A DNA stretch of 64,000 bases from Gemmatimonadota bacterium (GCA_036679605.1 JAZDCZ010000427.1:1-64000); one strand, 5' to 3'. Counted from the stretch's first letter, positions 1 through 18,829 are shown. Translations and numbers: made by a program. Notes: generated by a model from the sequence alone, not told the origin.

Positions 1-158
1 GGTATATAGATAACCTGGTTTGTAACTTCCTCCGGGTTTTGTTCGGGTTTCGGTCAGTGCGCCGCTAGATTCACCGTCAAAAAACTCTGTTCAGCCTGGT
101 TACTCGGCGCCAAACCTAGATTCAAACCTAGGTAAGTCTGGGTTTGGGCTGGATTTTG
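1..158 (+). repeat. Left terminal inverted repeat (TIR) of casposon
   Basis: Begins GGTATATAGATAACCTGG. Its reverse complement matches 18542-18699 with 2 mismatches (left positions 115 and 151). Confidence 0.97.
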
Positions 159-210
159 ACTAGATTCTGGTTGGATCGCTGCCAATTACTTCAGCTGAAC
201 TGGAAGACAA

Positions 211-804
211 GTGACACTTCCCCGCCTCTCGGTTCAACGTCTGAGCGGCGCCGAACCATTCCATTTGGCTGGTGAGTCATCAGTGGGGTCGGTTCTTGAT
301 TTTTGGCAATGGGCCTGTTCTGATCTCGTCACCAACACCTTCCGTGGCTGGTTGGCTGAATACATCGTAACTCGGGCGCTAGACGTTCCAGATGGGGTGC
401 GCCATGATTGGCTGCCGTACGATCTGACAGACGAGAACGGAATTAAGATTGAAGTAAAGACATCCGGTTACGTGCAAAGTTGGCATCAAGCAAAGCTGTC
501 AACCCCTCGCTTTGATATTGCTCGTAAGCGAGGGTGGGACCCCGACACAGATACACTGACAGAAGTACCGGAGCGACATTCCGACGTTTACGTTTTCTGT
601 CTCCTCAAGCACCGCGAGCAGGCTACTCTCGATCCGCTTGATCTGGGTCAGTGGGAATTCTATGTGCTCTCGACGCACCTGATCAACCAGGAGTTGGGCA
701 GCCAGAAGTCACTCGGCGTCATTACGCTAAGGAATCTAGGTGCCGTGCCTGTCGGGTTTCAGGAGATCCGATCCGCAGTAGTGCAGGCCGCCGAACACGC
801 TTAA
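211..804 (+). CDS. PD-(D/E)xK restriction-endonuclease-fold protein
   Basis: Motifs GWLAEYIV, PYDL and IEVKTSG fit the E..D..ExK nuclease pattern. Confidence 0.6.
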   Translation: MTLPRLSVQRLSGAEPFHLAGESSVGSVLDFWQWACSDLVTNTFRGWLAEYIVTRALDVPDGVRHDWLPYDLTDENGIKIEVKTSGYVQSWHQAKLSTPRFDIARKRGWDPDTDTLTEVPERHSDVYVFCLLKHREQATLDPLDLGQWEFYVLSTHLINQELGSQKSLGVITLRNLGAVPVGFQEIRSAVVQAAEHA

Positions 805-1183
805 TGTGATCGAGCCATCTGACAAGACTTGTGGTGTCCGTTCGCTCGACCTAGATCCCGCTGATATCAGGCGTTGGTACCTTTCAACCTTGCGGGAGAA
901 CGGATGCGACTTTCTCGGCGTAGATCTTGGCCCAGTCTAGCCACCTCCTGCAGAGTCGCGATCTCCAACTCGGCGGGTAAGTAAGCTCGGCCTGCCTGCT
1001 CAGCTGCAATCACGTAGTCACGAATCTGCTGGCTTTGACCCACTGCTCCTGCGCCCGTGCTACCCTTGCCAACCCTTGCCAGGGTGTTATGGTTGTGGTC
1101 GTCAAACGGCAAGCCTGATGTGTCGCTTGGCAACATCCTGTTTAGTGCTCGCCGTCACGTCGCCCTAGCTGCGGAGGTTGCAG

Positions 1184-2773
1184 ATGCGTGTTCGGCCTGT
1201 TTTATCGTTTTGTCTTACCTTCGTCTCTGCCCTCGTCATTGCATCTTGTGGTTCGGACTCTGGACCAAATGCCCCATCTGGTACCAAAGATCCGACCGGC
1301 CCTGCTGCGGCTTCGATCCAGGTCACATCGCAACCTGCGGGAGCCGCAGCCGGTCAAGCGTTTACAACACAGCCTGTGCTTGAAGTGCGGGATGCGAACG
1401 GAGCCATCGTTGGCGTTGACAATGTCACGGTGGTGACCGCTGCCATCGCATCTGGGGGTGGAACGCTACAAGGCACGACGACTGCGACCGCAGTTGGTGG
1501 TGTCGTGGCGTTTTCGGACCTTGGCGTCGGCGGAATCGCTGGCGAGCGGACACTGGCCTTCTCGGCACAGGGTCTTGCCGAGGTCACATCTGCGCCTTTC
1601 CCCCTCACACCTGGACCAGCAGCCCAGGCGATACTTGAAGACGGTAACGATCAACAAGGCGGAAGAGGTGAACTGCTTGGCAAACTGCTTGTCATTGGCG
1701 TATCTGACGACTTTGGGAATGGCGTTCCTGACGTGGCGGTGGAGTGGTCCATTACTGGCGATGGCACCGTAAGCCCCGTTCAGCCTTTGACCGACAGCAC
1801 TGGCCAGGCTAGTGCACAATGGGTGATGGGTTCTTCTTTGGGAATTGACACCGCGACAGCTGCGGTTGTTGGCACCCTCTTACCACCGGTCGTGTTTGTC
1901 ACGAGGGTCGTTCGCGTGTGGGTGTTACTAAACCCCACTCTCTCACCATCGGCCCGCGAAGCGCCATTGATGGCTTACGCGACATCTCGCGATGTCACCG
2001 TTCTTTTTGGTGGCCTTACCCAGGCGGAAGGTCCGACAAACGCCGAAACGTGGGAATTTGATGGAACCGACTGGCGCCAGATCGTGACGGTCACTTCCCC
2101 ACCAGCTCTGAATCAGACCATGGGCGCGATGGTGTACGACTCTGCGCGAGGGCGGGTGGTCGTTTTTGCCACTGAGAATCCCACGAAGACATTGTGGGAG
2201 TTCGATGGTACGGACTGGACCGCAATGTCGTACGCGGGAGGACTGTTTCCAAGTCGCTGCTGCACCCGCGCCACGTTCGATGCCAAGCGAAACAAGACTG
2301 TGATCTTTGGGGGCTTTCGCGTTGGTTTCATGAACGACACGTGGGAGTTCGACGGGACCGGGTGGATCGAGATTGTTACATCACCTACTAGTACTCCATC
2401 CGTTCGGAGGGAAGTCAGTATGGCTTACGATGCTGAACGTCAGCAGACAGTTGTAGTTGGTGGATGGGACGGCGTGCAGAACCTTAACGACGCTTGGCAG
2501 TATGACGGTCTCAGCTGGGTTAGTATTACAAGGCCCTCAGCCTTCCCTTCTAGTTCAGAGACGGGACTCGTGTTTGACCCAGCAGCTCGAACGCTGCTCT
2601 TTGCCCTGGGCAGCCAGACCTGGGAGTGGGACGGCTCCTCGTGGACCTTATTGGGAGCGGGTGTAACACCTTCGTTTAATGGCCACTTCGGAATCGCATT
2701 CGACGTGGCGAGAGATCAGGTGGTTGTCTTCGGCAACAATCCGTTCAGCAGCCAGACTTGGATCTACCGATAG
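1184..2773 (+). CDS. Lipoprotein with Ig-like domains and a C-terminal Kelch-like beta-propeller
   Basis: GGAGG RBS before ATG 1184, lipobox IASC, Ig-like N-terminal half, and repeated FGG...TWEFDGTDW blades. Confidence 0.75.
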   Translation: MRVRPVLSFCLTFVSALVIASCGSDSGPNAPSGTKDPTGPAAASIQVTSQPAGAAAGQAFTTQPVLEVRDANGAIVGVDNVTVVTAAIASGGGTLQGTTTATAVGGVVAFSDLGVGGIAGERTLAFSAQGLAEVTSAPFPLTPGPAAQAILEDGNDQQGGRGELLGKLLVIGVSDDFGNGVPDVAVEWSITGDGTVSPVQPLTDSTGQASAQWVMGSSLGIDTATAAVVGTLLPPVVFVTRVVRVWVLLNPTLSPSAREAPLMAYATSRDVTVLFGGLTQAEGPTNAETWEFDGTDWRQIVTVTSPPALNQTMGAMVYDSARGRVVVFATENPTKTLWEFDGTDWTAMSYAGGLFPSRCCTRATFDAKRNKTVIFGGFRVGFMNDTWEFDGTGWIEIVTSPTSTPSVRREVSMAYDAERQQTVVVGGWDGVQNLNDAWQYDGLSWVSITRPSAFPSSSETGLVFDPAARTLLFALGSQTWEWDGSSWTLLGAGVTPSFNGHFGIAFDVARDQVVVFGNNPFSSQTWIYR

Positions 2774-2806
2774 GTAGGACATGACTGAAACGAAACGGTA
2801 CCGGGA

Positions 2807-3052
2807 TCACTGTGCTCGCGTTCGCTTTCTGGTCTCAGGGAGGAAGTACGAGAGCGGCTTATGGTAGACCTTCGCCAGATCTTCCAGTTCGATGACATCC
2901 ACGCGGCGCTCCCCTGACTCACATTTCGAGACAAACGACTGGGGCTTGCCGAGTGCCTTCGCAGCCTCCGACTGCGTGAGCTTCGTTTCGAGGCGCGCAG
3001 CCTTGAGGCGTCGTAGGAATTGCTTGTAGCGAGTAGTATGGAGAGATTTCAT
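2807..3052 (-). CDS. XRE-family HTH transcriptional regulator
   Basis: LTQSEAAKALGKPQSFVSKCESGERRVDVIEL is a typical HTH_3 signature. Start reassigned to ATG 3052. Confidence 0.85.
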   Translation of the reverse strand: MKSLHTTRYKQFLRRLKAARLETKLTQSEAAKALGKPQSFVSKCESGERRVDVIELEDLAKVYHKPLSYFLPETRKRTRAQ

Positions 3053-3217
3053 GCGGCCAGTCATCGAAGCCAGTCCGCGGGAAGCCTGCCTAGCCTGGCC
3101 GGATAACCCAAATTGGGATATGTTCAGAGAGCTGTCCGAAACAGGCTGGACAAACAAGTGACGGGTTTTTTGCGGAGAGAGGATTCGGAATACGTGTGGA
3201 CGCTGAGGGATCCACCT

Positions 3218-6200
3218 GTGTCACGGGGGATCGCATACTTTAGGTTTCAAGTTTTGATCGCGTTTTCGGGTGCTGTCGGGCTGCTCGCGTCCGTTTCCTG
3301 CGGCGGCGGTGGCGGCGACTCGACTGCTCCTCCCAAGACACCTCAGCCCAAGCCCGTGACTCGCGTCGAGATCTCACCAAGTGCAGATACGCTCACCGCG
3401 GTCGGCGCAACCCTTCAGTTTCAGGCTGTAGCCAAGGCCGCAGATGGCAGTACGATATCCGGCAAGACATTCGCTTGGAGTTCCACCAATACGAGCGTTG
3501 TTACCGTCAATCCGTCAACGGGTCTTGCATTGGCGAGTGGAAACGGAGTCACGACCATTCGGGCCATCGTTGACGGAGTCCAGGGATCCGCATCGCTTAC
3601 CGTCAATCAAGTGGGATCTGCGCTAGTCATCCGCACGCAGCCCAGTGGAGCTGGTGCCGGAGCGACGTTCACAACTCAGCCGCAATTGGAGGTACGCGAT
3701 GCACGCGGTAACATCGCGGAAAACGATAGCACTACTGTAGTGACCGCTACGATCGCGTCGGGTGGGGGAACTCTGATGGGCAGCACATCGGCTGCAGCTG
3801 TCGGCGGCGTGGTTGGTTACACGGACCTTGCGATTGGTGGTACCGCTGGGAACAAAACACTTACCTTCACCGCCCAAGGCATCGCGGGAGTAACGTCGGC
3901 ATCCTTCACTCTGGCACCGGGTCCCGCTGTCCAAATGGCTCTCGATGCTGGAGATGCACAGACTGGACTCGCTGGCACGATCCTACCCGTGTCTATGTCG
4001 GTGCAGGTTGTCGATGCCTTCGGTAACGCAGTATCAGCCCAAGGCGTAGATTGGAACACCACCGCTGGGTCAGGTACCCTATCGGTGACAACGACAACGA
4101 CAAACGCATTTGGTATTGCCGGTGTGACCTACACGCTTGGCAGGTTTGCGGGTCAAGAGACTGTGGAGGCGACGGCGTCGGGGCTCAACGGCTCGCCGAT
4201 CATATTTAATGTCACTGCCACACCCAATGGAACGATCAGGGGTGTCGTCACCGTCGCAAGTGCCTTCCTTGCCCCCTCGGCTGCTATGGCAACCGGTGAG
4301 GCTACAAAATCATCGTCCGCAATATCCATAGCGGGCGCGCCGGTTCGGCCCTCTACAGTCAGACAGAACCTAGGGTCTTTCCAGCAGCCACGAAGTCAAC
4401 AGCCGCAGCGCCCGGCTCCTGAGTATGTACCCAACGAGCTGATTGTTACCTTCCGCCCGGGTCCTGTGGGTGCACCACGGGCTGGTACCGGACTCATGTC
4501 CACAGCCAACGCGCAAGCAGTATCCAGCGGCATTCGCACTTCCCTGGCACCTTACGTGGCGTCGAGCACTATGGCGGTTACCGGCGTGTCGCCCGCGATC
4601 CGAGCGGCTAGGATAGTAGTGCCTAGCTCAGCATCCCTCGACGCCGTTGCCACAATGCTGCGAAATGATCCCACTGTGGAGACTGTCGAGCGCAATGCGA
4701 TTGTGCGACTAGACGCGACTTCCGGTAAGAATACGCTGGCACCGCCACTTCCCACCCTGCCGAATGATCCACTATACCCGTGGCAGGCTTGGAATTATGA
4801 GATGATAGATGCACCTAAGGCATGGAGTATTACTACGGGGAATGCCGGAGTGTTGGTTGCTGTTGTTGATGCCGGGATCAGATTTGACCATACCGGAATC
4901 GCCGCAAACCTTGCTAATGACGGCTACGACTTTGTATCTACCGGCACACTGCAAATTTGCGGTGGAGGAACGATAGACCGGTCGGGGGATGGAGACGGCT
5001 TTGATTCTGATCCGACCAACCCCCTGGATGTCAATTTCGATGGAAGCCTGAACTGCGTGACCACTACGCAAGCATCGGGGAACCATGGTTTGCATGTGGC
5101 AGGAACTATCGGCGCAGTCGGGAATGACGCCGCCGGAGGGTCCGGGGTCTCCTGGAGCGTCCGCATTCGTCCTGTGCGTGTTCTCGACATCACCGGCGCC
5201 GGAAACAATTTCGACATTGCTCAGGGAATCTTGTACGCAGCAGGTCTTGTGGTAGACGACGGATTTGGGAACATGATACAGGCGCCGTCAGGGGCTCCCA
5301 TCATCAACATGAGTCTCGGTGGTCCGGTCAACTCAACAATGTGGCAGAGTGCTGTGACAAGCGCAACTGCTGCGGGGTCGCTAATCATCGCTGCTGCTGG
5401 TAACGATGGTAATTCCGACCCTCAGTATCCAGCAGCATATTCGGAAACGGTGTCTGTATCTTCGGTCGGACCTGATGCACTGATTTCGTCGTTCTCAAGC
5501 TTTGGATCGACTATCGATATCGCTGCACCTGGCGGCGACTTGGTTGACGGTGACGCGACCTTTGGTATCTTGTCCACAGCGTGGAACTACGTTACTGGCA
5601 CACCGATTTGGGATGCAGCAGTATGGAACGGGACATCCATGGCGGCACCTCACGTATCCGGTGTTGCCGCTCTCTTGCTAGCCCAGGATCCAACACTCAC
5701 TGCGACACAGCTCCGTTCTCGCCTCCTTAACTTCGCCGTTGACGTGGGAGCGCCCGGACGCGACGATTTATATGGCAATGGAATTGTCAATGCACGCAAC
5801 AGTTTGACACAGACACTTTCACCACCAATGGATCTGCATGTTGTGCTGGTGGATGCAACGTCTGGCGCAGCCGTGCAAACGCTGATGGCGGCGCCCGACG
5901 GGTCATATGCCTTTGATGAGTTGGCGGACGGTGGCTATTACATGTATGCGGGCCAAGATGACAACGGCGATGGTCTGGTTGGGATATTCGAGCGCCGCTG
6001 GGGTGCGTTCGGCGGTTCAGCGACACCGACCCAGGTGACTATCAACGGCGCCGGAACCTCAAACGCCGATTTCTCCGTCGGGTTTCCGATTGAAGCGGAA
6101 CCGAATAATCTGTTTGCGGACGCCGACGTGCTACAGCTAGGTGGATATTTGTTTGGTGTCATTGCAGATATCAATACGCCAGATGTGTCGCGAGTGGAGA

Positions 6201-6460
6201 TTCCGGTGGCCGGAACCTATACGTTCGAAACCGCTGCACCTGCTGGCGCGTGTCTATTTGCACTAGGCGAGGACACGGTCCTCCAGCTCTACGATGGAAC
6301 CGGTGTGCTACTTGTGGAGAATGACAACGTAGATGCTGCTAGCAACAATTTCTGTTCTCGCATCACGCGTTCGCTAACTGCGGGAAGCTACTTTGTAGCT
6401 GTTTGGGGCAGGCAGGGATCTCCCAGAAGATACCAAGTTCGAGCTAGGTCTGGACAATGA
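3218..6460 (+). CDS. S8 (subtilisin-like) serine protease lipoprotein with N-terminal Ig-like domains and a C-terminal PPC-like domain
   Basis: Catalytic triad motifs VAVVDAG, NHGLHVAGTIGA and GTSMAAPHVSG. Lipobox SVSC. The start (GTG 3218 after GAGGGA) is inferred. Confidence 0.9.
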   Translation: MSRGIAYFRFQVLIAFSGAVGLLASVSCGGGGGDSTAPPKTPQPKPVTRVEISPSADTLTAVGATLQFQAVAKAADGSTISGKTFAWSSTNTSVVTVNPSTGLALASGNGVTTIRAIVDGVQGSASLTVNQVGSALVIRTQPSGAGAGATFTTQPQLEVRDARGNIAENDSTTVVTATIASGGGTLMGSTSAAAVGGVVGYTDLAIGGTAGNKTLTFTAQGIAGVTSASFTLAPGPAVQMALDAGDAQTGLAGTILPVSMSVQVVDAFGNAVSAQGVDWNTTAGSGTLSVTTTTTNAFGIAGVTYTLGRFAGQETVEATASGLNGSPIIFNVTATPNGTIRGVVTVASAFLAPSAAMATGEATKSSSAISIAGAPVRPSTVRQNLGSFQQPRSQQPQRPAPEYVPNELIVTFRPGPVGAPRAGTGLMSTANAQAVSSGIRTSLAPYVASSTMAVTGVSPAIRAARIVVPSSASLDAVATMLRNDPTVETVERNAIVRLDATSGKNTLAPPLPTLPNDPLYPWQAWNYEMIDAPKAWSITTGNAGVLVAVVDAGIRFDHTGIAANLANDGYDFVSTGTLQICGGGTIDRSGDGDGFDSDPTNPLDVNFDGSLNCVTTTQASGNHGLHVAGTIGAVGNDAAGGSGVSWSVRIRPVRVLDITGAGNNFDIAQGILYAAGLVVDDGFGNMIQAPSGAPIINMSLGGPVNSTMWQSAVTSATAAGSLIIAAAGNDGNSDPQYPAAYSETVSVSSVGPDALISSFSSFGSTIDIAAPGGDLVDGDATFGILSTAWNYVTGTPIWDAAVWNGTSMAAPHVSGVAALLLAQDPTLTATQLRSRLLNFAVDVGAPGRDDLYGNGIVNARNSLTQTLSPPMDLHVVLVDATSGAAVQTLMAAPDGSYAFDELADGGYYMYAGQDDNGDGLVGIFERRWGAFGGSATPTQVTINGAGTSNADFSVGFPIEAEPNNLFADADVLQLGGYLFGVIADINTPDVSRVEIPVAGTYTFETAAPAGACLFALGEDTVLQLYDGTGVLLVENDNVDAASNNFCSRITRSLTAGSYFVAVWGRQGSPRRYQVRARSGQ

Positions 6461-6858
6461 ACTGGCAACGTACACCGTTGGCTGCCCTGACCTTCCTTTC
6501 CGCCTTACTCATTCTGGTAGGGTGTGCCCGAAGTAGAGGTGACTCCGAAATCGATTCGTCGGCCCCGTCGCTGGATAGCCTGCGGGCAGTTGTACTCAAT
6601 TTGATTGACCAACCCAGCTGCACCAGCCCAGAGGTATGTCGGACAATTGCGTTTGGGAGCAAGCCATGTGGCGGGTCTTGGTCGTACGTCGCTTACTCCA
6701 CGCAGGTCACTGACTCAGTTAGGCTCTCCGAAGTTGTTGCGGCGTTCAATGATCGTGAGAAAAGCCTGAACCAGGAGCTGGGGCGTGCCTCTGACTGCCG
6801 CATGGTAACCAGACCCCAAGTGATTTGTCAGACAGGAAAGTGTGTGACCGAGCAGTAA
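6457..6858 (+). CDS. Cys-rich lipoprotein, translationally coupled to the subtilase
   Basis: Lipobox LVGC, six further Cys (CTSPEVC, KPCGG, SDC, CQTGKC), and an ATGA overlap with the upstream stop. Confidence 0.7.
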   Translation: MNWQRTPLAALTFLSALLILVGCARSRGDSEIDSSAPSLDSLRAVVLNLIDQPSCTSPEVCRTIAFGSKPCGGSWSYVAYSTQVTDSVRLSEVVAAFNDREKSLNQELGRASDCRMVTRPQVICQTGKCVTEQ

Positions 6859-6913
6859 GAACCCAAGCGTAATCCAACGAGTAGACTGATCTCGCACCTC
6901 AGGGTCGGGTCAC

Positions 6914-9254: not shown

Positions 9255-9412
9255 CGGAAGGCTCCTTTGGACAAGGGCGTCTAGCCATGCACGAACGATG
9301 ACCTCGAATCGCTAGAGTTAATGTCAGACAAGAGAGCAAGCTGCATGCCATATGGCACTTGGGTTAGCCCTTAAATCTAACCATAAGAGCGAATACCCGG
9401 AAGGAGGTTTCT

Positions 9413-9610: not shown

Positions 9611-9616
9611 CGTACT

Positions 9617-10135
9617 GTGGCCAGTCGCGGTGGATCCCAGTCTCGCCCTGCTCGGTCGAGGCGTTCAACTCGGAGCCTGTCCGAACGGGAGGAACTGGCG
9701 AGAGGGCGTGCGTTCGAAGCCTTGAACATGATGCGCAACCGCGGCTGGTCCCTGACCCACGCGGCAACCGAAGCCCTGACGACGCCGCAGACGGTTCAGA
9801 GGTATGTAATGTCAGCACTGCGGCGTTTGGAAACGGGAAGGTATCGGCCGAAATCTGGGGATCACATGGTGAGGTCAATGAACTTCCAAACAAAAGATGG
9901 CGTGATCGTCCTACCTATTCGTGGATCGCGTAATAGATCGGCAGTCGCCATCCATGCCAACGCGATGAAGACGTTTGCGAACACCGGACGCACCGACGCA
10001 TTGCGACCGTTTCGCGGCAGGTCGATTCGGGCAGCCGGCAAGACATACCCGTTTCTCACGGATTTAGGATCGCTTCGCCGAGTGCTGGACGCCCAAGACG
10101 TCGCGTATGAGGAGGTCTACGCGCTAACGCAGTAA
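9617..10135 (+). CDS. Hypothetical basic protein, possible HTH
   Basis: 172-aa ORF in the operon with polB. WSLTHAATEALTTPQTVQRY is HTH-like. Confidence 0.6.
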   Translation: MASRGGSQSRPARSRRSTRSLSEREELARGRAFEALNMMRNRGWSLTHAATEALTTPQTVQRYVMSALRRLETGRYRPKSGDHMVRSMNFQTKDGVIVLPIRGSRNRSAVAIHANAMKTFANTGRTDALRPFRGRSIRAAGKTYPFLTDLGSLRRVLDAQDVAYEEVYALTQ

Positions 10136-10150
10136 TTGAAGGAGGCTGTA

Positions 10151-10606
10151 ATGTCATCACCTAATGTTGCTTCAATCGTTCGCGCCGCTCGCCGACAACG
10201 GCGCATCGGCCCCGATGAGAAATGCCTGCTTTGCGTCTACGCCAATCCTGTCGCGCTCTCACGCGTAAACCGAACCCTGCTGGACGAGCATCACGTTTCA
10301 GGAATTGCAAATTCGGAGGATCTTACCGTCGTGTTGTGTCGTAACTGCCACGCCGAAGTGACTGAAGATTTGAGACAGGGGGGAGTATCGATGAAACCGC
10401 CTACGACAATCATTGATCGTGCCATTCAGTTGTTGAAGGGGCTTCAGACCTTTTGGCCAAAGGTGAACAGCGCTATCGGCGACGTCGTCTTGTGGCTGGA
10501 GGGCTTCGCAAAAGGGCTCGATCGGGATTATCCGGCATGGCGCGACATGCCCGAGGCAGCAGGCTGGTCAGTAGGATCAGTAGAAGATGAAGATGAGCAT
10601 CGATGA
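10151..10606 (+). CDS. HNH-type Zn-binding endonuclease-like protein
   Basis: CLLC...DEHHVSG..N...LCRNCHAE. AAGGAGG RBS before ATG 10151. Confidence 0.8.
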   Translation: MSSPNVASIVRAARRQRRIGPDEKCLLCVYANPVALSRVNRTLLDEHHVSGIANSEDLTVVLCRNCHAEVTEDLRQGGVSMKPPTTIIDRAIQLLKGLQTFWPKVNSAIGDVVLWLEGFAKGLDRDYPAWRDMPEAAGWSVGSVEDEDEHR

Positions 10607-13600
10607 TCTGCAGGTCGCGGTGCGGGTGTACACGAGGCAGCGCACCGACAAGCCACTGAAGAGTCGCGGGCAACAGAAGCGGAAGAAGCCGACTGAGGCT
10701 GTAAGCCACTCCGAAGAAGCGCACAGCGCTCCATGGCCCGCGGTAGTCCTGATCCTCGACTTCGAGACAACCACGGATCCAACCCAACGAATGACCTTCG
10801 GTAGTTACCGAATCGGCAAATTCCACGGGCTGCGTCTTCGTGTCGTTGAAGAAGGTCTCGTGCATGCGGACGATCTCCTTGAAACTGACCCGCAAGGGCT
10901 GGCACTGCTCACCGCCTATTCTACCTCCCATAAGGCCGAGGTCGCCGGTAGGCGGGTCAAAAAACTACACCTGTACTCCCGTCGTGAGTTCATGGAGAAA
11001 GTCTTCTGGCCTATCGCCTACGATGCCGAGTCGCTGGTGGTCGGCTTTAACCTACCGTTCGATATTTCACGTCTAGCAACTGACGTTGGTGATGCGCGGA
11101 TTCCCTTTCGCGGCGGATTCTCATTTCAGATGTCAGAGTACTTCGACGAGGAGAGTGACAGCTACAAGGAGAACCGGAATCGCCCACGCGTGTGCGTGCG
11201 ACACCTGGATCCCAGGCGCTCGTTCAAAGGGTTTACCCGGCCCGCCAAAGTTCGTGGGGACGACCCAGGTTTTGTTGTTCGACCAGAGGCTCACCCCAAC
11301 AAGGGAGGATTTCGCGGGCACCTGATCGATCTGCGGACACTGGCCTTTGCTCTTACCAATACCAGCCATTCACTCGAATCGGCTTGTAAAGCATTTGGAA
11401 TGGAACACGGTAAAGGTGAAGCCGAAACACACGGTCACATAACGCCTGAGTATATCGCTTACAACAGACAAGATGTGCGCGCCACGACTGAACTGCTTGT
11501 TAAGCTCAGGCAGGAATTCGATCTCCATCCCATCAGCCTCGACCCCTGCCATGCGTTCTCTCCCGCGAGCGTGGGGAAAGCCTATTTCAAGGCCGCGGGA
11601 ATTGAACCCCTCAGACATAAATATCTCAACATCACATCGGAGCATTACGGCATCGCCATGACATCCTATTACGGTGGCCGGGCTGAAGCCAGAATACGGC
11701 TACAACCGGTACCGGTGGTTTATGGTGATTTTCTCGCGATGTATCCCACAGTCAACTGCCTGATGAACATGTCGAAAATGTTGACAGCCGAACGAATAGG
11801 GGTTGTGAGCGCAACCGATTACGTGCGGCGACTACTCCGGAAGGTGTCGATCGACCAGTGCTTTGATCCTAACTTCTGGCTGAAGTTGCGGTTCTTCGCG
11901 CTTGTCAAACCGCGTGGTGATATCCTGCCCGTCAGAGCTAAGTACAGTCCCGACAACGATTCTTTCACCATCGGCGTCAACCCAGTGACCTCTGAGGACA
12001 CACCTTTGTGGTATGCTGGTCCGGACCTGGTGGCTTCAACTCTGCTGTCGGGGCGGCCACCGGAGATTGTTGAGGCCTTCCGTTTGGTACCAAGAGGGCT
12101 TCAAGAGGGACTGAAGCCGATGCGGTTGGGCGGCCAAGTGTGCATAGACCCACGGAAAGACGATGTCTTTCAGAAGGTGATAGAATCGCGTAAGGCCGTG
12201 GCCCGCGACAACTCATTGCCAAAACGCGAGCGCGAGCGGCTCGACCGCTTTATCAAAGTTTTCGCTAACAGCATTAGCTACGGCGTGTACGCCGAATTCA
12301 ATAGGGAAGAGGCCAAAGCACGTGAGAAGTTCGCCGTAGAAGCGTACGGCTTGGACGGCGGATTTACCGTCAGAAAACCCAGGCTTGAAAAACCAGGTGT
12401 GTATTGCTTTCCACCTTATGCCTCACTCATCACGTCTGGTGCCCGTCTGATGCTCGCCCTTCTAGAAGCCACAGTCACCAGGGCCGGTGGCACGTACGCG
12501 TTCTGTGATACCGACTCGATGGCGATCGTGGCCACCAAGACTGGCGGCCTTCTGGCTTGCCCCAATGGCAATCGTACGCTTGGCGACGGCACACCGGCGG
12601 TACAAGCGCTGTCGTGGAAGCAAGTGGACGCGATAATCGAGCGATTCAAAGCGTTGAATCCATATGATCACAGTGTGATTTCCGGATCCGTCTTGGAGAT
12701 AGAGCGAGAAAACTTTGACGACGACGGTAGGCGATGCCAACTGCACGTGTTCGTTATTTCAGCGAAGCGCTATGCGCTGTTCAATCTTGCGGCGGATGGA
12801 ACCATAAAGATTTGCAAGCATTCGGAGCACGGGCTCGGACACCTCTTAAACCCAATCGACCTCGCACGTGAGTCACGGGATTGGATTCAAGAGGTCTGGC
12901 TTGAGATCATCACGTCCACACTGAACGGTACTTCGCCATCCTTTCCAAGCTGGGCATCACGGCCTGCAGTATCCCGTCTTTCGATCACGTCGCCACACCT
13001 ATATAGACCGTTTCACCGAACCGGGTCAAAGCTCAAATACGCAGACCGGATCAAGCCGATGAATTTCGTGTTGAGTGTGACAGTTGCGCCATTCGGTCAC
13101 CCACCAGGAGTCGATCCCAAACGATTTCATTTGATCGGCCCCTACACAACCGACCCGCGAAAGATCCGCAGGCAGTTTTGGTTCGATATTCACACCGGGG
13201 AGCGCTTCGGAATTACCACAGGACATCCAGGGGGATCGCTAGTGCGGGTTCAGTCGTACAACGATATCCTGGTGAAATATTGTACGCACCCCGAGTCGAA
13301 GAGTGCAGATGCTACAAGAAAAGCATGCACTCGTTCTACCAAGGGCCTCCTCTACCGACGGAGCGTCGTCGTCAACGAAGTCGTCTATATCGGTAAGGAA
13401 GCAAACCGGATCGAGGAAGTGGAGCACGGTACCGTGCACGATTGGGAGGAGGTTCGTGAAAGATACTCCGATCCCAAGCGGGGTATTTGGGTAACGCATG
13501 TCTTCCCGATCCTGCGAACACTTGAGGAAAAGGTGCTTGCTAAGAGAATCGGGGTGACTGCACGTACAATGCGGTCGTACAGAAGCGGCACATCACGACC

Positions 13601-13805
13601 CCGGATGAAGACCTTCAAGTCGGCTGCGCTAGTAGCAGTCGAGCGTGCACGTCACATCGTGGGCAGCGCTGAATTCGCTGTGGAGCTGCGACGTCGTGCG
13701 GAGAGGTTGCTTGCTACTGATCTAGCCAGATCGATCGAGATTCCGGAGGTCCAGGCTCAAACACAGGATTCCCAGAGGAGGGTGGCATGTATACGCCTTT
13801 GCTGA
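10587..13805 (+). CDS. polB: Family B DNA polymerase (casposon type) with 3'-5' exonuclease and C-terminal HTH-like segment
   Basis: Exonuclease motifs DFETT, GFNLPFDI and YNRQDV. Polymerase motifs YYGGRAE, DFLAMYP, KVFANSISYG, CDTDS and KRYAL. Confidence 0.93.
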   Translation: MKMSIDDLQVAVRVYTRQRTDKPLKSRGQQKRKKPTEAVSHSEEAHSAPWPAVVLILDFETTTDPTQRMTFGSYRIGKFHGLRLRVVEEGLVHADDLLETDPQGLALLTAYSTSHKAEVAGRRVKKLHLYSRREFMEKVFWPIAYDAESLVVGFNLPFDISRLATDVGDARIPFRGGFSFQMSEYFDEESDSYKENRNRPRVCVRHLDPRRSFKGFTRPAKVRGDDPGFVVRPEAHPNKGGFRGHLIDLRTLAFALTNTSHSLESACKAFGMEHGKGEAETHGHITPEYIAYNRQDVRATTELLVKLRQEFDLHPISLDPCHAFSPASVGKAYFKAAGIEPLRHKYLNITSEHYGIAMTSYYGGRAEARIRLQPVPVVYGDFLAMYPTVNCLMNMSKMLTAERIGVVSATDYVRRLLRKVSIDQCFDPNFWLKLRFFALVKPRGDILPVRAKYSPDNDSFTIGVNPVTSEDTPLWYAGPDLVASTLLSGRPPEIVEAFRLVPRGLQEGLKPMRLGGQVCIDPRKDDVFQKVIESRKAVARDNSLPKRERERLDRFIKVFANSISYGVYAEFNREEAKAREKFAVEAYGLDGGFTVRKPRLEKPGVYCFPPYASLITSGARLMLALLEATVTRAGGTYAFCDTDSMAIVATKTGGLLACPNGNRTLGDGTPAVQALSWKQVDAIIERFKALNPYDHSVISGSVLEIERENFDDDGRRCQLHVFVISAKRYALFNLAADGTIKICKHSEHGLGHLLNPIDLARESRDWIQEVWLEIITSTLNGTSPSFPSWASRPAVSRLSITSPHLYRPFHRTGSKLKYADRIKPMNFVLSVTVAPFGHPPGVDPKRFHLIGPYTTDPRKIRRQFWFDIHTGERFGITTGHPGGSLVRVQSYNDILVKYCTHPESKSADATRKACTRSTKGLLYRRSVVVNEVVYIGKEANRIEEVEHGTVHDWEEVRERYSDPKRGIWVTHVFPILRTLEEKVLAKRIGVTARTMRSYRSGTSRPRMKTFKSAALVAVERARHIVGSAEFAVELRRRAERLLATDLARSIEIPEVQAQTQDSQRRVACIRLC

Positions 13806-14791
13806 GTACCGGCGAAGCGGCCAAGTTAGCAGGACTGTCTGAAGACCATATACGCCGGTTGGCCAACCGTAACATTATCGATTGCACGCGTACGCCTGGC
13901 GGTCACCGGCGGTTCCGCGAAGATGTAGTGTTAGACTACGTCGAGAACCGCCCTCGCAGACAGCCACGTGTACGACATCCTAAACCGCAACCACGTAACG
14001 AACGCCAGGACATAGACGCCGCAGTTGAGTTTCTGAGTCAGCTCGACTATCCAGATGAAGAGGAATGGGTTGAACCGGAGCCAGCTCGACCGGCGCCGCA
14101 ACCTCGGGCTTCGGTTGTCCCGCAGGTGCAAGAACCGGCTATACCCTTCGGCAGTCCATCTCCCTTCGACGATGTGGATGAGCGAACCGCTGAGGAAGAG
14201 ACTCGGAAGGCCGAGGAACAAGCCCAGAAGGTACGTGAGGAAAGCGCCCGTATTCGGAACCTCAAGCTCGGAGCGATGGCGTGCATACCCTACGATGTTC
14301 CCAGCGTCTGGCGATCCAAGGTGATAACATCACTCGAACAGAAGGTGACGAGCGAGCGTGTTTCGTCTTGGTTACCGCACCACGAGCAGGCCAACCAAGC
14401 CACGAGCGTCGTTGAGGAAACACTGCAGCCCTACCGTGAGGAGAAGAAGCGGGAGAAGGAACAACAGCGAATCGAGCTAGAGCACAAGCGAGCTGAAGCC
14501 GAGCGGGAGAAGCGCAAGGAAAAGGAACGAAAGAAGTCCGAGAGGCGTAGGGAAGAAGAACGAGAGAAGTCCGAGCAGCGCAAGCAGCAGCTAGTTGATC
14601 ATGGTATGAAGTACGCGGGGGACGAAACCTGGGGTTGGGACTACAGTTCCAAGACTGATGCCAAGCGCGAGGTGGAGGCCGTTCTCAAACGCGACGTGGA
14701 GCAGGATTGGACCGAGCACGAGGTAGAAAACTTGGTGGACGATGTGTTGGCGGACTGGGATCCGAATGACAACGATGGGGACGAGTGGTGA
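13787..14791 (+). CDS. Excisionase-like HTH protein with a long charged coiled-coil region
   Basis: LLSTGEAAKLAGLSEDHIRRLA...RTPGGHRRF, followed by an E/K/R-rich helical region. Confidence 0.75.
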   Translation: MYTPLLSTGEAAKLAGLSEDHIRRLANRNIIDCTRTPGGHRRFREDVVLDYVENRPRRQPRVRHPKPQPRNERQDIDAAVEFLSQLDYPDEEEWVEPEPARPAPQPRASVVPQVQEPAIPFGSPSPFDDVDERTAEEETRKAEEQAQKVREESARIRNLKLGAMACIPYDVPSVWRSKVITSLEQKVTSERVSSWLPHHEQANQATSVVEETLQPYREEKKREKEQQRIELEHKRAEAEREKRKEKERKKSERRREEEREKSEQRKQQLVDHGMKYAGDETWGWDYSSKTDAKREVEAVLKRDVEQDWTEHEVENLVDDVLADWDPNDNDGDEW

Positions 14792-14890
14792 CTCTCCGCT
14801 TTAAGACAGGGGCCGATCACACCACATTCTAGCTTCTTGGCCTGATACCTGCGGCAATCACGCTGAACGCAAGACTCTGCTTTATAGCAG

Positions 14891-15589
14891 TCAAATGTCC
14901 TCGCCACGTTTGCGACGGCGCAGCCGGGCTGCCCCGATACCGAATAGGCCACTACCCAGTAGCACCATAGTAATGGGCTCGGGTACAACTGTGGTCGGAG
15001 GAGTCTCACGAGTAAGATCGGCGTTACTGCAACAACTGACGCGCTGATCGACTGTCTTGCCGTTCAACACCCCTATCTGCGTCCGCAGGTCCGACGGAAA
15101 GGCTGTTACCTCAAACGAGAACACGACTGTTCCATAAAGCGCCGTCTGGACAGGCATGAATGTCTGTTGATCTGCAAGGCATTGTGGATCGCTTTGGCAA
15201 CGAGAATCAAAGATCGCGTTAAATGGCCCTGGGTCGTCCGCTCCGCCAATGAAGGCAAGTCTTGAAATATTTACATCAAGGAGGAATAGATCTGTGACGT
15301 CGACTCCTCCAATTGTCGCAGATGCAGTGCCCGGCAAGAAAGTAGCGCTCGTGACACCGTTAAACCCAACGTTTTGAATTGCTGCCCACGGAAGACCAAT
15401 GGATTCAAAGCTTGTGTTGGTAACCCTAGCCGTCACGGCCCACCGATCTCCGAGGAAAATTGCTTCAACGGCAATACTAGCGCATGTCCGTATTGAACCG
15501 GATGAACATCCAGAGAAGGTCTGGGCTGAGACCAAATTCGGTACAAATAGCAGAGACAGAGATAGCGGGTAGACAAGACGCAGCATCAT
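14891..15589 (-). CDS. PEP-CTERM sorting-domain secreted protein
   Basis: Signal peptide and C-terminal VPEPITMVLLGSGLFGIGAARLRRRK. Start inferred at 15589. Confidence 0.85.
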   Translation of the reverse strand: MMLRLVYPLSLSLLFVPNLVSAQTFSGCSSGSIRTCASIAVEAIFLGDRWAVTARVTNTSFESIGLPWAAIQNVGFNGVTSATFLPGTASATIGGVDVTDLFLLDVNISRLAFIGGADDPGPFNAIFDSRCQSDPQCLADQQTFMPVQTALYGTVVFSFEVTAFPSDLRTQIGVLNGKTVDQRVSCCSNADLTRETPPTTVVPEPITMVLLGSGLFGIGAARLRRRKRGEDI

Positions 15590-16097
15590 AGGTCGCCTAC
15601 TACAAATCGCGGCTGTCATATCTGACCACTTGATGACACGCATGTTGCCCCGCATAGGACGCTCCAAGGCAGAAAGACGGCTTCCATTGCTGTACTACAA
15701 CCTGTTGAGCACTTGAAGACGGCGAGTACAAATGACTCGGACAACTACGCCATTAGAAGCAAGAATTATACCGAAATGTGACGTGGGTCACAATTTCTGA
15801 GGTGGTGCAATCTGTTGCCAGGTAACGGCTTAAGGTCTCGCTGGCGCTGCTTGGCAGGGCCAGGTTACTGCTTGCGTCGTGCTGGCCCCACAGACTGTCG
15901 ATGCGCGGTGTTGCATCCTCTGTGGTTGAGCGACTCCACTTGGCAAAATCGGTACATCGGATTGCGCAAGGAATGATCGAAGAAGTTGAGCGGCAGTTGG
16001 CAAAAGTCCGGAAAACGCCTAATGTTGAGACGGCTGGTGGGGTCGGACGTGAAGCCTAGCGGATCACAAGAAGAGTTTGGCAATGATGTGTCAGGCT

Positions 16098-16711
16098 TCA
16101 CCGTTGACCCTCGTTTACTTGAAGCAACCACTGGCGAAGTTGGTCTCCATTCTTGAGTTCTAGGCGGTTCGGAACAAGAGCCTGAAACTCTTCGCTCGTA
16201 TAGATACCGGGTTGGAAGTCGGACGTTGTAGTGATGAGGCCCTTTGATGCGTTAAGGTCCCTGGACAGTACTCCCATCATGCTGCGAACGTCGTCGTGGG
16301 TGACAAGGTGACCATGAGAATAGGCTTTGCACTGCTCCAAGAAGCGAATCGCACCGAACCCAGGTTTTGCTACGATAACGTCCCGACCGCCATCGCCGCT
16401 TCGAGGCGTAAGTTCTACTTGCCACTCACCACTCTTGCTGTATGTTGCAGCGATGAATTCCTCGAACTTTCTAGGGTGCTTTACGAACTGGAAAAGAAAT
16501 TCCGGGTCACGGTCAATCTCCAACATAATTTCCAACCATACGTCTGTAACACCGACAATGAGCTGACCCTCGGCCGTCTTGTCTCCAACTACTGTGATTG
16601 TGGCCTGGATGAGCACCTCTGCACTCGCTTTCTTCCGTCGTGAAGCTAGGATGATTCTCCTACGCCTCCAGTGAAAGGTCATTGCATCATCCCAAACCGA
16701 CTGCGGCACTC
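16098..16711 (-). pseudogene. 3' part of an IS3-interrupted Mrr-like restriction endonuclease gene
   Basis: PRKFEEFIAATY...TPRSGDGGRDV...EQCKAY is the Mrr_cat pattern. Joins in frame to 17967-18432 once the IS is removed. Confidence 0.85.
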
Positions 16712-16746
16712 TGGAATTCACCCGCTTTTTCGTACACGCGGTTAAG

Positions 16747-17640
16747 CTAGGTTTCGCGGTTTTCGAACGCTATTGGGCTGAGCCCTCCGGTGTGCGAGTG
16801 GCGTCGAATCGGATTATAGAATTTCTCAATGTAGTCGTCGATATCTGTTGTAGCATCCTGTCTGTTCCAGTATTTGCGTCGGTTGATCCGTTCTTTTTTC
16901 AGGCTGCTGAAGAAGCTTTCCATGGCGGCGTTGTCATAGCAGTCTCCACGTCTGCTCATGCTTGATACGGCCTGGGCCTTTGCGAGCCTCTGCTGGTACT
17001 CGTAGCAGGCATACTGACTGCCTTGATCCGAGTGGTGTACGAGTCCCGATAACGGCTTCCTGAGTCGTAGCGCCTTCTCAAGGGCCGTAAGCGGCAACCA
17101 GCGATCGATGCGCGATGCGGTATTCCAGCCCACAATGCGCCGTGAGTAAAGATCCATCAAAGCGGCCAGGTAGAGCCAGCCTTCCTCGGTTGCGATGTAG
17201 GTGATATCCGCTGCCCAGGCCCTGTTGGGCTCGGCCACTTGGAAGCGGCGCTCCAAAAGGTTCGGGGTAACTGGGTAGTCATGCTCTGAGCTTTGCGCCG
17301 GTCTGCGCCGACGCTTTTGTACTGCGGTGATACCAGCACCCCGCATCAGTCGAGCGACCCGCTTCTCGCTTACTGTATAACCGAGAGCTCGCAGGTCCTT
17401 CACAATGCGGGGACTGCCGTAAACACGCTTGCTCTCTTCGTAGCTGGCTCTGATCTCCAGCAACAGCCTGCGATCGGTCTTCGCTCGCTCACTGGGCTTG
17501 CGGGAACGCCACTCGTAATAACCGCTGCGGGACACCGACAACGCCGAGCACAACCAGCTTGCCGGTCCCAACTCACAACTGGACTTCACCAATCCGTACT
17601 TCACTGCTGGCCTCGGGCGAAATACCCCGACACTTTTTTT
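16747..17640 (-). CDS. IS3 transposase OrfB (DDE), expressed via -1 frameshift
   Basis: WAADITYI, HHSDQGSQY and DNAAMESFF. A7G slippery site at 17633-17640 on the minus strand. Confidence 0.92.
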   Translation of the reverse strand, partial: KKSVGVFRPRPAVKYGLVKSSCELGPASWLCSALSVSRSGYYEWRSRKPSERAKTDRRLLLEIRASYEESKRVYGSPRIVKDLRALGYTVSEKRVARLMRGAGITAVQKRRRRPAQSSEHDYPVTPNLLERRFQVAEPNRAWAADITYIATEEGWLYLAALMDLYSRRIVGWNTASRIDRWLPLTALEKALRLRKPLSGLVHHSDQGSQYACYEYQQRLAKAQAVSSMSRRGDCYDNAAMESFFSSLKKERINRRKYWNRQDATTDIDDYIEKFYNPIRRHSHTGGLSPIAFENRET

Positions 17641-17903
17641 AAAAACGCATTCTCCGTCCGAAGACGGGCATTCTCTCGCCGCAGCTCCTCCAATTCCTTC
17701 TCCCCGTCCTTCAGGTTCCCGTGGCCCGGAAATGACTGAGTCGGATCCTCGCTGAATTCCTTCTTCCAACGACGAAGCATCTCAGAACTCAGCCTGAGCT
17801 CCCTCGCAATCTCACTCGTTGAACGATCACCATTTAGGACCATCCGCACCGCTTCAATCTTAAACTCGCGGCTGAACTTCCTCCGCTGTTTGCCTGATGA
17901 CAT
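17601..17903 (-). CDS. IS3 transposase OrfA (HTH)
   Basis: RRKFSREFKIEAVRMV...EIARELRLSSEMLRRW...LRRENARLRTENAFLKK, with a GGAGG RBS. Confidence 0.92.
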   Translation of the reverse strand: MSSGKQRRKFSREFKIEAVRMVLNGDRSTSEIARELRLSSEMLRRWKKEFSEDPTQSFPGHGNLKDGEKELEELRRENARLRTENAFLKKVSGYFARGQQ

Positions 17904-17966
17904 ACACACCTCCAGCTGACAACAGTGCCAGTTTATCTAGGTGTACGTCAAATCGGGGGACTTCCA

Positions 17967-18432
17967 CTCGCAGTGATCCGTCTAACCAAAGTGGCCCCAA
18001 AGGGCCAGCCTCAGAGGGGTCTATAGGGTCACCAGGCGGTTGTTGGTTGGTGTAGATGCTGCGAAGCTGCTCGAAGTCTTGCTGCAATTCGGAAGACATG
18101 CAGGTAAGCATGCCAAATATTTCGGTTGTTCCGGTCAAGATCGATCTTGCGTCATCTCTTGCTAAGCCAAAGGCAGTTGATGCCGCCAGATACGCCAGCG
18201 AGGATACCGGTTGTTGACCGAACGTGATCCTAGCTACCCGGGAGCGGTCAAAGTTATCACCACGAGAAAAAGCTTCGGCCTGCTTGAGCAATTGCTCCAC
18301 ATCTTGGTGAGTGGACTGATCCTGAATGCGGTACAACTCGGGTTCGAGCCGCCTCACAATACGGGCTATGTAGCAAACGAGCCCACGCAGTGGGAGCTGA
18401 CCCAGGTCGTCGCAGGAAGGAATGCTTGCCAT
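17967..18432 (-). pseudogene. 5' part of the IS3-interrupted Mrr-like endonuclease gene
   Basis: Reads ...PLWLDGSLR|VPQSVWDD... in frame across the excised IS. The reconstructed ORF is 1077 nt (358 aa). Confidence 0.8.
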
Positions 18433-18541
18433 ACTGGAGGGTTTCTCAAATAGGTGGATGTTTGCTTGGCCCTAGCCATTTTTCCGTCTAGGTCGCCTCT
18501 GCCCGCGCTGGCAAAGTAATCACACAACCACCCAACTTCAG

Positions 18542-18699
18542 CAAAATCTAGCCCAAACCCAGACTTACCTAGGTTTGAATCTAGATTTGGCGCCGAGTAA
18601 CCAGGCTGAACAGAGTTTTTTGACGGTGAATCTAGCGGCGCACTGACCGAAACCCGAACAAAACCCGGAGGAAGTTACAAACCAGGTTATCTATATACC
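18542..18699 (-). repeat. Right terminal inverted repeat (TIR) of casposon
   Basis: Reverse complement of 1-158, ending ...GGTTATCTATATACC. Confidence 0.97.
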
Positions 18700-18829
18700 T
18701 TACGCGTTTACGCAAATCCGGCCTATCGCGGTGTCACAGGTGAGGTCAGCCCTCTACAAACGGCCCCACTGGACAGTCAGTCGGCCGTCGCTCATTCCAC
18801 GCTAGTATCAGACGTTTCCTGTTGCGACC

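Follow-up and report, generated by a model that had tools for sequence, protein, structure and literature searches.

We analysed a window of 64,000 nucleotides from a Gemmatimonadota bacterium (GCA_036679605.1, JAZDCZ010000427.1:1-64000). The window is G000:C365:1-64000 in our numbering, G000 being this genome, and its base 1 is the first base of contig C365. A preliminary description of the window had read positions 1-18699 as an apparently complete casposon, enclosed by near-perfect terminal inverted repeats (TIRs) and suggestive of recent activity, in a phylum not known to have a described casposon. A casposon is a transposon moved by a Cas1-type enzyme and equipped with a DNA polymerase gene of its own. 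Casposons are the proposed ancestors of the adaptation machinery of CRISPR (short palindromic repeats, clustered and regularly interspaced). Throughout, related loci are the best 80 of 300 stretches that encode a relative of the window's Cas1, with one genome per species. The ends of the element and the genes of its core are as follows.

1-158, plus strand: left TIR, found by repeat search and blastn.
6914-8362, minus strand: casposase, a Cas1 domain with a C-terminal helix-turn-helix (HTH), in a frame of 482 aa (PF01867, 7.5e-45).
8253-9254, minus strand: open reading frame (ORF) of 333 aa without family match, overlapping the likely casposase start; in 3 of 80 related loci.
9413-9610, plus strand: MerR/HTH_17 small DNA-binding protein, first gene of the operon; in 9 of 80 related loci.
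9617-10135, plus strand: conserved protein of 172 aa; in 49 of 80 related loci, with weak N-terminal HTH matches in some relatives.
10136-10606, plus strand: putative HNH-like zinc-finger nuclease of 156 aa; in 21 of 80 related loci.
10587-13805, plus strand: family B DNA polymerase (PolB) of 1072 aa, identified by motifs and fold.
13787-14791, plus strand: HTH_17/excisionase-type DNA-binding protein of 334 aa with a long, charged, repetitive tail.
18542-18699, minus strand: right TIR, ending in ...CTATATACC; judged by the left end and by relatives, a final C is missing, and no target duplication follows.

The inverted copies at 1-158 and 18542-18699 are present as described. The repeat search returned one long inverted pair with 158-nt arms at these positions (99% complementary), and blastn of the arms gave 98.73% over 158 nt, or 156 of 158 identical, with the two mismatches at TIR positions 116 and 151. 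Because the runner-up inverted pair in 1-20000 is 34 nt at 71%, the TIR pair lies far beyond chance. The window has 7 copies of the 8-mer CTAGATTC, where 1.26 would be expected, and five of the seven fall in or just inside the TIRs (65-72, 116-123 and 160-167; 18577-18584 and 18628-18635). The left TIR holds two copies, with a third just inside it at 160-167, and the spacing within each arm is 51 nt. The copies may serve as binding sites for the HTH of the casposase or for one of the HTH proteins. The GC (guanine plus cytosine) fraction of the element is 0.52-0.59 compared with 0.60-0.64 in nearby host DNA.

The casposase gene is, as proposed, an intact solo cas1 with a C-terminal HTH at 6914-8362 on the minus strand. 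Translation probably starts at Met34 (near 8263), giving a protein of 449 aa; relatives are 446-457 aa long, and residues 4-30 of the structural model are disordered. The putative Cas1 active-site residues E256/E258, H276 and D288/E291, assigned by eye, are invariant in 32 family members. The zinc-binding insert is absent from this Cas1, unlike most of its family. The AlphaFold model has a mean predicted local distance difference test score (pLDDT) of 81, and its top three Foldseek matches are chains of 6opm, the casposase of Methanosarcina mazei (E 1.2e-18, 24-26% identity). The same entry is the best PDB sequence match (1.5e-21), followed by A. fulgidus Cas1 (3.2e-20). The score of the CRISPR Cas1 4n06 is nearly as high, so the protein cannot be placed by its likeness to 6opm alone.

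Pipelines annotate relatives of this protein as "CRISPR-associated endonuclease Cas1", and other Cas1 genes lie in the same genome, on contigs C130 and C357. The locus might on this basis be a decayed CRISPR-Cas adaptation locus, in which an orphan cas1 stands near a polymerase gene by chance, an explanation to which we give almost no credence. The generic Cas1 model TIGR00287 (128.9 bits) is the only Cas1 model above its cut-off; all CRISPR-subtype models are far below theirs (I-C, for example, 93 bits versus 385). Within the host phylum, PF01867 gives 264-355 bits for CRISPR-type genes versus 128-153 bits for genes of this type. A tree of 106 Cas1 domains places all 25 CRISPR-type rows on one side of a branch with a Shimodaira-Hasegawa-like approximate likelihood ratio test (SH-aLRT) value of 100, and the 81 casposase-type rows on the other. 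The rows comprise this Cas1, 77 of the 80 related loci (three were dropped for short or interrupted matches), and three casposase-type and 25 CRISPR-type sequences of the phylum, which together are the 28 of 38 match rows with a usable locus. The tree is a quick search under LG+G4 with CRISPR Cas1 from one phylum and no archaeal casposases. A position inside CRISPR-associated clades had been named in advance as evidence against a casposon; this Cas1 instead stands outside the 25 CRISPR-type Cas1 of its phylum, with SH-aLRT 100. Its nearest rows are from Thermomicrobia, Ktedonobacterales, a metagenome-assembled genome (MAG) labelled Myxococcota, and Binatia, not from Gemmatimonadota, which fits horizontal spread.

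The surroundings of the gene also argue against a CRISPR origin. PF09827 found no Cas2 genome-wide; the model also missed an E. coli-type Cas2 in a control, so this negative does not extend to type I-E Cas2. No Cas2 family matched any neighbour of cas1 within the element, and there are no array-like direct repeats in the 64 kb. Instead, TIRs enclose the gene here, target-site duplications (TSDs) flank the elements of relatives, and cas1 is linked to polB in 70 of the 80 related loci, in at least 8 phyla. Separately, two Cas1 domains of the tree sit in open frames of 804 and 815 aa (L110 at G000:C130:2145-2927 and L137 at G153:C11:67816-68616). They form long branches that pair in the tree and are unrelated to the casposon; they could be fused Cas1 proteins of another kind.

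The divergent operon of HTH, unknown, HNH, polymerase and HTH genes was likewise found on the plus strand in the order described. PF12728 and PF13411 matches leave no doubt about the HTH genes. The HNH-like protein carries the pattern CxxC...HH...N...CxxCH, recognised by eye, and its Pfam matches (HNH, HNH_2 and DUF7097) are all sub-threshold. In PolB, the residues of Exo I (D58, E60), Exo II (N155, F158, D159) and Exo III (Y292, D296) are kept across 34 homologues, as are those of motif A (D381, S384, Y386, P387), motif B (K557, N561, Y565, G566), motif C (D641-T642-D643) and the KxY motif (K727-R728-Y729). The AlphaFold model of PolB has a pLDDT of 86.3, and its top Foldseek matches are all family B polymerases. 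Against PDB, a PolB profile matched best to an archaeal PolB at E 0.011, and phmmer gave no match. The HTH of the casposase (residues 426-482) aligns with PolB residues 963-1026 at a hhalign probability of 93.2% (E 2.9e-7). For the 333-aa ORF, ESM Atlas gave only unnamed hypothetical clusters. A 33-nt tandem repeat (82% identical) at 14507-14572 lies in the charged tail of the HTH_17 protein.

Since 300 stretches in species-representative genomes encode a relative of this Cas1, the element type is not rare in public genomes. Of 8000 candidates scored in a protein search, 857 are relatives; the three nearest lie on short contigs and have 91%, 80% and 78% identity. By record label, the 80 related loci comprise 46 Acidobacteriota, 10 Chloroflexota, 7 Gemmatimonadota, 6 Actinomycetota and 4 Thermomicrobiota, with one each from four further phylum labels (one of them archaeal) and three unlabelled. 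The 70 loci with a PolB homologue beside cas1 show the same divergent arrangement. In the host phylum the casposase is sporadic, present in 8 of 401 genomes including this one (E <= 1e-40, best identity 51%). The published hosts of family 3 casposons are not among the best 80 of the 300 loci. Three side observations concern these loci. The single archaeal label belongs to L031, a bacterial-type cas1-polB module in a MAG labelled Micrarchaeota, which reflects mis-binning or transfer. A single Gemmatimonadota contig bears two casposase genes with about 13 kb between them (L068 and L078). Two such genes, 20 kb apart, also occur in another genome of the phylum (G290:C2:351429-352412 and 371447-372466).

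When the related loci were each compared with themselves, 34 of the 80 showed inverted pairs whose arms lie over 4 kb apart. We kept by eye the 27 pairs that bracket the cas1-polB core and dropped seven that looked like duplicated genes (L030, L036, L047, L048, L078, L093 and L095). The 27 elements are 11.5-19.2 kb long with TIRs of 33-390 nt, and most termini begin GGG. A direct repeat of at least 12 bp occurs at both ends in 25 of the 27, with a core of 14 bp that is sometimes longer through overlap with the GGG/CCC terminus. In 20 of the 27, the repeat starts GTCAA or ends TTGAC at the end away from the element, and 15 of those 20 have a -10-like hexamer 16-18 nt beyond TTGACN in the host flank. 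Tandem insertions also occur. In L058, L077, L082 and L096 the right-hand duplication is immediately followed by another TIR-like end, and in L050 such an end stands just before the left duplication; all five are head-to-tail stacks at one promoter.

The left flank of the element is found on another contig of the assembly. Contig C188 (14,206 nt) carries unrelated host sequence and then, at its very end, bases 1-113 of the TIR at 100% identity. Its minus strand carries tRNA-Thr(CGT) and tRNA-Leu(GAG), and the TIR starts 67 nt beyond the 5' end of tRNA-Leu; the insertion is therefore intergenic, 67 nt upstream of that gene. In a genome of the same genus, G001, homology to this flank (87% identity) reaches to about 9 nt from the TIR start, and the site is empty. 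About 130 nt further on, G001 continues with the genes of window positions 24670 onwards in the same order and orientation (G001 444-564 matches C365 24670-24790, and G001 1834-3367 matches C365 25825-27355). Because the synteny with G001 spans both contigs, C188 and C365 are neighbours. Because the flanks are syntenic with G001, the contig is host DNA and not a contaminant of an oversized bin. Thus the empty site that the preliminary description suggested looking for exists, and its assignment of the host to Gemmatimonadota is upheld by the synteny with a same-genus genome. Relative to G001, about 24.7 kb is inserted, consisting of the TIR-bounded 1-18699 and a remainder at 18700-24669.

Positioned at the first base of a contig, the left TIR had been flagged as a potential assembly artefact. 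This was not borne out: the two arms differ at two places, C188 carries the TIR behind another flank, and the 27 relatives have the same TIR-bracketed layout, so the TIR is a feature of the DNA at which the assembler broke. The same position would suit a linear plasmid or virus-like replicon with TIRs and a protein-primed PolB, as would the sole Pfam match of the polymerase, a weak one to the protein-primed type PF03175, and the presence of phi29 polymerase among its top fold matches. We consider such a replicon very improbable. The right TIR lies within an 84.6-kb contig, which runs on into host-syntenic DNA, and beyond the left TIR come the tRNA genes of the host on C188. General Pfam/NCBIfam-type family scans detected no capsid, terminal-protein or partition gene, and the relatives are TSD-flanked inside chromosomes.

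The left junction follows the pattern of the relatives. The flank reads ...GCG GTCAACCGAAGGTG G|GGTATATAGATAAC, in which a 14-mer starting GTCAA is followed by a G and then by the window's first bases. The Gemmatimonadales element L080 starts GGGTTAGTAGATAAC, and with the extra G the terminus here is GGG as in relatives. By the rule in relatives, the real left terminus most likely lies one base further left, at the G of C188:14093, and would read GGG, GGGTATATAG...; the right arm has no counterpart of this extra terminal G. On the strand of the tRNA genes, the junction reads TTGACC, 17 nt, TAGGTT. The orthologous empty site in G001 was called as a promoter, TTGACC-17-TATGTT, with one site versus 0.1 expected. 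Judged from sequence, the left junction is a canonical (primary) insertion at the -35 element of the tRNA-Leu promoter, with the promoter still joined to its genes.

The right junction is different. The right TIR, ...CTATATACC, runs into TTACGCGTTTACGC, with the final C and the 14-mer absent. The check proposed earlier, a comparison of the left flank from C188 with the bases after 18699, gave no duplication, and k-mers of the left flank in window 1-30000 found chance 10-12-mers only. At about 24607-24623, within the AbiEii frame, a stretch loosely resembles the target (8 of 14 positions without gaps, judged by eye); we take it for chance. Because 25 of 27 relatives have a TSD, its lack here concerns the right junction of this copy and not the family. 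The DNA between the right TIR and the resumption of synteny contains the following.

18700-24669, no strand assigned: rest of the island, absent from G001.
19576-19746, minus strand: casposase gene fragment outside the element, 79% identical to this casposase at the DNA level and 80% at the protein level over residues 339-373.
19788-22778, minus strand: Ser/Thr kinase-FGE-hydrolase gene.
22997-24633: AbiEi-like (DUF6088)/AbiEii pair, inside the island.

The cas1 fragment can be read as far as its stop; on the 5' side it breaks off beside the kinase gene's end. Among 31 genomes including G000, the island 18700-24669 has matches in six, all short, weak and in the kinase gene. Since the TSD and the last TIR base are missing and a foreign cas1 fragment adjoins, the right junction is secondary. 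Two side observations concern this stretch. By eye, a small reading frame at 19119-19241 on the plus strand, past the right TIR and before the cas1 fragment, encodes about 40 residues with a very high share of Arg and Lys. On either side of the place where synteny resumes there is a toxin-antitoxin pair, AbiEi-like/AbiEii (22997-24633) on one side and host Phd/YefM with a PIN protein (24767-25792) on the other.

Taken together, we are fairly confident that positions 1-18699 are an integrated casposon of a large soil-bacterial lineage, with a primary left junction and a secondary right one. The identification as a casposon agrees with the preliminary description, given the TIRs, a solo Cas1-family integrase, a family B polymerase, and the lack of cas2 and of an array. 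Several results weigh against this reading. No TSD is present: between the right flank TTACGCGTTTACGC and the left target there is no likeness, and the assembly has a single occurrence of the 14-mer GTCAACCGAAGGTG. A promoter scan of the element's own left flank gave 0 sites, and its -10 hexamer, TAGGTT, scores 3/6. The type of PolB is ambiguous, its PDB matches being generic: PF03175 matches weakly in 27 of 34 homologues (best 9e-10) and PF00136 in one of 34 at 0.037, and Foldseek ranks Pol alpha, African swine fever virus (ASFV) polymerase and phi29 polymerase about equally. BLASTP of the single Cas1 and PolB C-termini finds no likeness between their HTHs. In 18700-24700 there is no TIR remnant of an older element, and the deletion history proposed below is a reconstruction. 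Genome blastn, sequencing runs and metagenome scans revealed neither a second copy nor excision or joined ends. Lastly, the join of C188 to C365 is deduced from the 113-nt overlap and synteny, no spanning read or contig having been seen, and one Logan contig (record 8; 2931 nt, depth 15.4) joins G plus TIR 1-113 to 2780 nt that do not fit C188.

Record 8 matches G plus TIR 1-113 (positions 2301-2414 of G000:C188:11793-14206) without mismatch and extends 37 nt further inwards, and its depth is like the 15-18 of C188. Because it carries the TIR end on another flank, either a third TIR end exists or the true neighbours differ. Record 8 is another context of the full GGG terminus: it may come from a second copy or from a strain variant whose right end is intact, or C365:1 may have a different neighbour. 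It is probably not the plain right flank of C365: the base next to the TIR there is A, not G, and no repeated 31-mer lies near the required contig end. Among the Logan pieces listed for the C188 flank, none spans the spacer from tRNA to TIR. The bin over that spacer has a summed depth of 12, but with 41 pieces and 7 loose ends beyond those listed, this is uninformative on the empty site or the junction. The element was found in one public sequencing run only, stored as contigs and probably the source sample.

Record 8 would also fit an assembly or binning problem: C188 and C365 would not be neighbours, or the TIR would come from another copy or strain, and the element would be a chimera of two copies. 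In favour of this, the first base of the window is also the first of its contig, record 8 has this TIR end beside a different flank at the depth of C188, and the bin is large (6.7 Mb in 434 contigs with 6.3% contamination, compared with 2.4-4.7 Mb in relatives) and may hold more than one genome. Our conclusions rest on contig-level synteny, not on the bin. In G001 the tRNA pair lies about 130 nt from the genes of C365:24670 onwards, in the same order and orientation, and the interior gene order of the element matches relatives end to end. Only three places in the assembly bear the TIR, and since two bases differ from the right arm, the left arm is a separate copy of the repeat. We judge a chimera to be improbable.

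The remaining genes of the element are cargo or part of an insertion sequence (IS), as follows.

211-804, plus strand: ORF of 197 aa, no family match, cargo.
1178-2773, plus strand: Kelch beta-propeller/Big_1 protein of 531 aa, cargo.
2807-3157, minus strand: HTH_3 (XRE-type) regulator of 116 aa, cargo (PF01381, 8.1e-12).
3113-6460, plus strand: S8 subtilase with Ig-like domains, 1115 aa, cargo (PF00082, 5.6e-49).
6457-6858, plus strand: ORF of 133 aa, no family match.
14891-15667, minus strand: PEP-CTERM sorting-signal protein of 258 aa, cargo.
16098-16711, minus strand: 3' part of a gene with an Mrr_cat restriction-endonuclease domain, parted from its 5' part by the IS.
16712-17966, minus strand: IS3-family IS of 1255 bp with imperfect inverted repeats of 37 nt (TG...CA) and a 3-bp duplication, CTC.
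16747-17769: IS3 transposase orfB.
17967-18432, minus strand: 5' part of the IS-split Mrr-domain gene.

When the IS3 and one CTC are excised in silico, a frame of 371 aa is open across the junction. Pfam and NCBIfam assigned no family to the ORFs at 211-804, 6457-6858 and 8253-9254, Rfam gave no match in 1-25000, and no ORF of the element encodes a tyrosine or serine recombinase domain. As a side observation, an Ig-like module is duplicated within the cargo: a stretch of about 130-166 aa in the Kelch/Big_1 protein (window 1361-1750) recurs in the subtilase (3686-4183) with 49-57% identity.

Two further claims of the preliminary description held in part. The element is complete in that its core genes and both TIRs are present; at the right end, TSD and terminal base are missing, and one cargo gene is split by IS3. 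Recent activity is favoured by the near-identical TIRs and by core frames that look intact, against which stand the secondary right junction and the failure to find a second copy. Reads joining the two ends, which had been proposed as a check, were not found, nor was an empty-site read. A metagenome scan with a 26-nt TIR pattern gave 0 matches, and one with the Cas1 protein gave 592 pattern stretches, none of which was confirmed.

The same evidence bears on whether this is a complete, canonical and still mobile casposon, recently inserted and with both junctions primary. Such an element would be expected to have near-identical TIRs and open frames for the casposase, PolB and the HNH-like protein with catalytic and motif residues kept, and both are seen here. 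Consistent with this view, the site is empty in the same-genus G001, Cas1 relatives of 91% and about 80% identity occur on other contigs, and the IS3 struck cargo only. However, what the left end, the Logan contig and 25 of 27 relatives show, a TSD and the terminal base, is missing from the right end, a foreign cas1 fragment adjoins it, and no other copy turned up in the genome or in metagenome scans. We regard this possibility as unlikely, if a serious one. On our preferred reading, an integrated casposon with a secondary right end, current mobility is uncertain because the right junction is secondary and an IS is carried, and the damaged right terminus may impair movement.

By analogy with the biochemistry of families 1 and 2, insertion would proceed in a few steps. 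The casposase would bind the TIR ends through its HTH and attach the 3' end of each to the target, at points 14 bp from one another. Filling of the gaps would then duplicate the 14 bp and leave one copy joined to the promoter, and the host promoter would therefore survive. PolB would copy the element, presumably assisted by the HNH and HTH proteins. In the most likely history of this site, an older casposon, about 80% related, sat at the promoter, and the present one inserted in tandem with it, as in several relatives. A deletion starting from the right TIR terminus would then have taken away the duplication that the two shared, together with the older copy's left part. An adjacent deletion made by the transposase would account for the exact end point. 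The IS3 would have split the cargo gene later.

A more specific form of this scheme can be proposed tentatively, and we do not expect all of it to hold. In it, the casposase of the clade reads the sigma-70 -35 hexamer (TTGAC) and spares the promoter, copies pile up head to tail upstream, and the right end seen here is a scar left by an adjacent deletion that the casposase made into an older copy in tandem.

The published record of bacterial casposons is short. Section 9 of Krupovic et al. (2014; PMC4046053) defines families 1-3 and places four bacterial casposons in family 3, named in that paper as AceAut-C1, NitAL212-C1, StrAlb-C1 and HenMar-C1; IS elements inside casposons are also reported there. 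A 2016 paper (PMC4779613) adds four more of family 3, describes all family 3 insertions as intergenic and reports tandem arrays in Methanosarcina; the word "promoter" is absent from the parts of that paper considered here. The statement that few bacterial examples are described thus agrees with the 4 + 4 family 3 casposons in these sources. The part of a 2023 methods paper (PMC9966878) considered here lists 54 casposase references of families 1-4, about eight of them bacterial, beside 52 of CRISPR Cas1, and mentions an unpublished wider survey. A 2023 review includes no Acidobacteria, Chloroflexi or Gemmatimonad hosts. No literature pairing a casposon with a Gemmatimonad was found, as the preliminary description had supposed, and relative to the literature searched this is a new host-phylum record for casposons. 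Neither a 14-bp TSD anchored on a -35 TTGAC nor the size of the clade was found in that literature, supplements lying outside the search, and titles and abstract openings gave no pointer to promoter targeting by casposons.

By its features, the element is nearest to the bacterial family 3, and the HTH shared by Cas1 and PolB connects it to the family 2/3 group; families were compared by description only. It resembles family 3 in its bacterial host, its intergenic insertion, the combination of Cas1, PolB, putative HNH-type and HTH genes between TIRs, its IS and varied cargo, and a Cas1 with a C-terminal HTH. The layout of AceAut-C1, with a CxxC...CxxC zinc-binding insert before the HTH, is the consensus of this element's relatives and has been lost in this Cas1. 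For family 3 a likeness to RNA-primed polymerases is stated (branching within family 2 PolBs); the PolB here has weak matches to PF03175 and a fold about equally close to Pol alpha, ASFV polymerase and phi29 polymerase.

With family 2 (M. mazei, Aciduliprofundum boonei), the element shares 6opm as closest structure and PDB sequence, a putative HNH gene and two HTH genes. It also has similar HTHs at the C-termini of Cas1 and PolB, a trait given for family 2 in section 9 of PMC4046053. Sequence-specific insertion and tandem arrays sharing a TSD, seen here in relatives, are likewise described in the parts of PMC4779613 considered here. In contrast, family 2 hosts are archaeal (euryarchaeal), its targets are tRNA 3' ends or intergenic sites and not promoters, and identity to 6opm is 24-26%. 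Family 1 has a compact Cas1 without extra domains, a protein-primed PolB and a thaumarchaeal host, whereas this casposase has a C-terminal HTH and its host is bacterial.

Compared with CRISPR Cas1-Cas2, the casposase has the same fold and conserved acidic and histidine active-site residues. Staggered integration that duplicates a target of fixed length, and repeated promoter-proximal insertion that leads to arrays, are further likenesses. Unlike that system, there is no Cas2 (PF09827) and there are no repeats or spacers, and the inserted DNA is the 18.7-kb element itself. The element also resembles pipolins as a bacterial mobile element with a divergent family B polymerase and defence-like cargo that adjoins a tRNA gene. 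Pipolins have a piPolB, tyrosine recombinases and direct att repeats; in contrast, the recombinases here are Cas1 and the IS3 transposase only, and the ends are inverted.

For the genome at hand, the casposon accounts for a 24.7-kb strain-specific island beside a tRNA operon. For the family, it points to a well-conserved lineage of bacterial casposons that is common in soil phyla, Gemmatimonadota included, has a simple and testable target rule (a 14-bp duplication anchored on the promoter -35 TTGAC), and tends to stack at one site. This opens to biochemistry how a Cas1-type integrase chooses its site, which of the two, TIR or target, is read by the C-terminal HTH, and whether promoter-proximal stacking resembles leader-proximal spacer insertion. 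If the casposase does read the -35 hexamer and delete into tandem copies, as tentatively proposed above, the adjacent-deletion scar would be evidence of activity of the element at this very site, and the lineage would offer a living model for how a casposon end and a duplicated target beside a promoter might have turned into the leader-repeat unit of the earliest CRISPR array.

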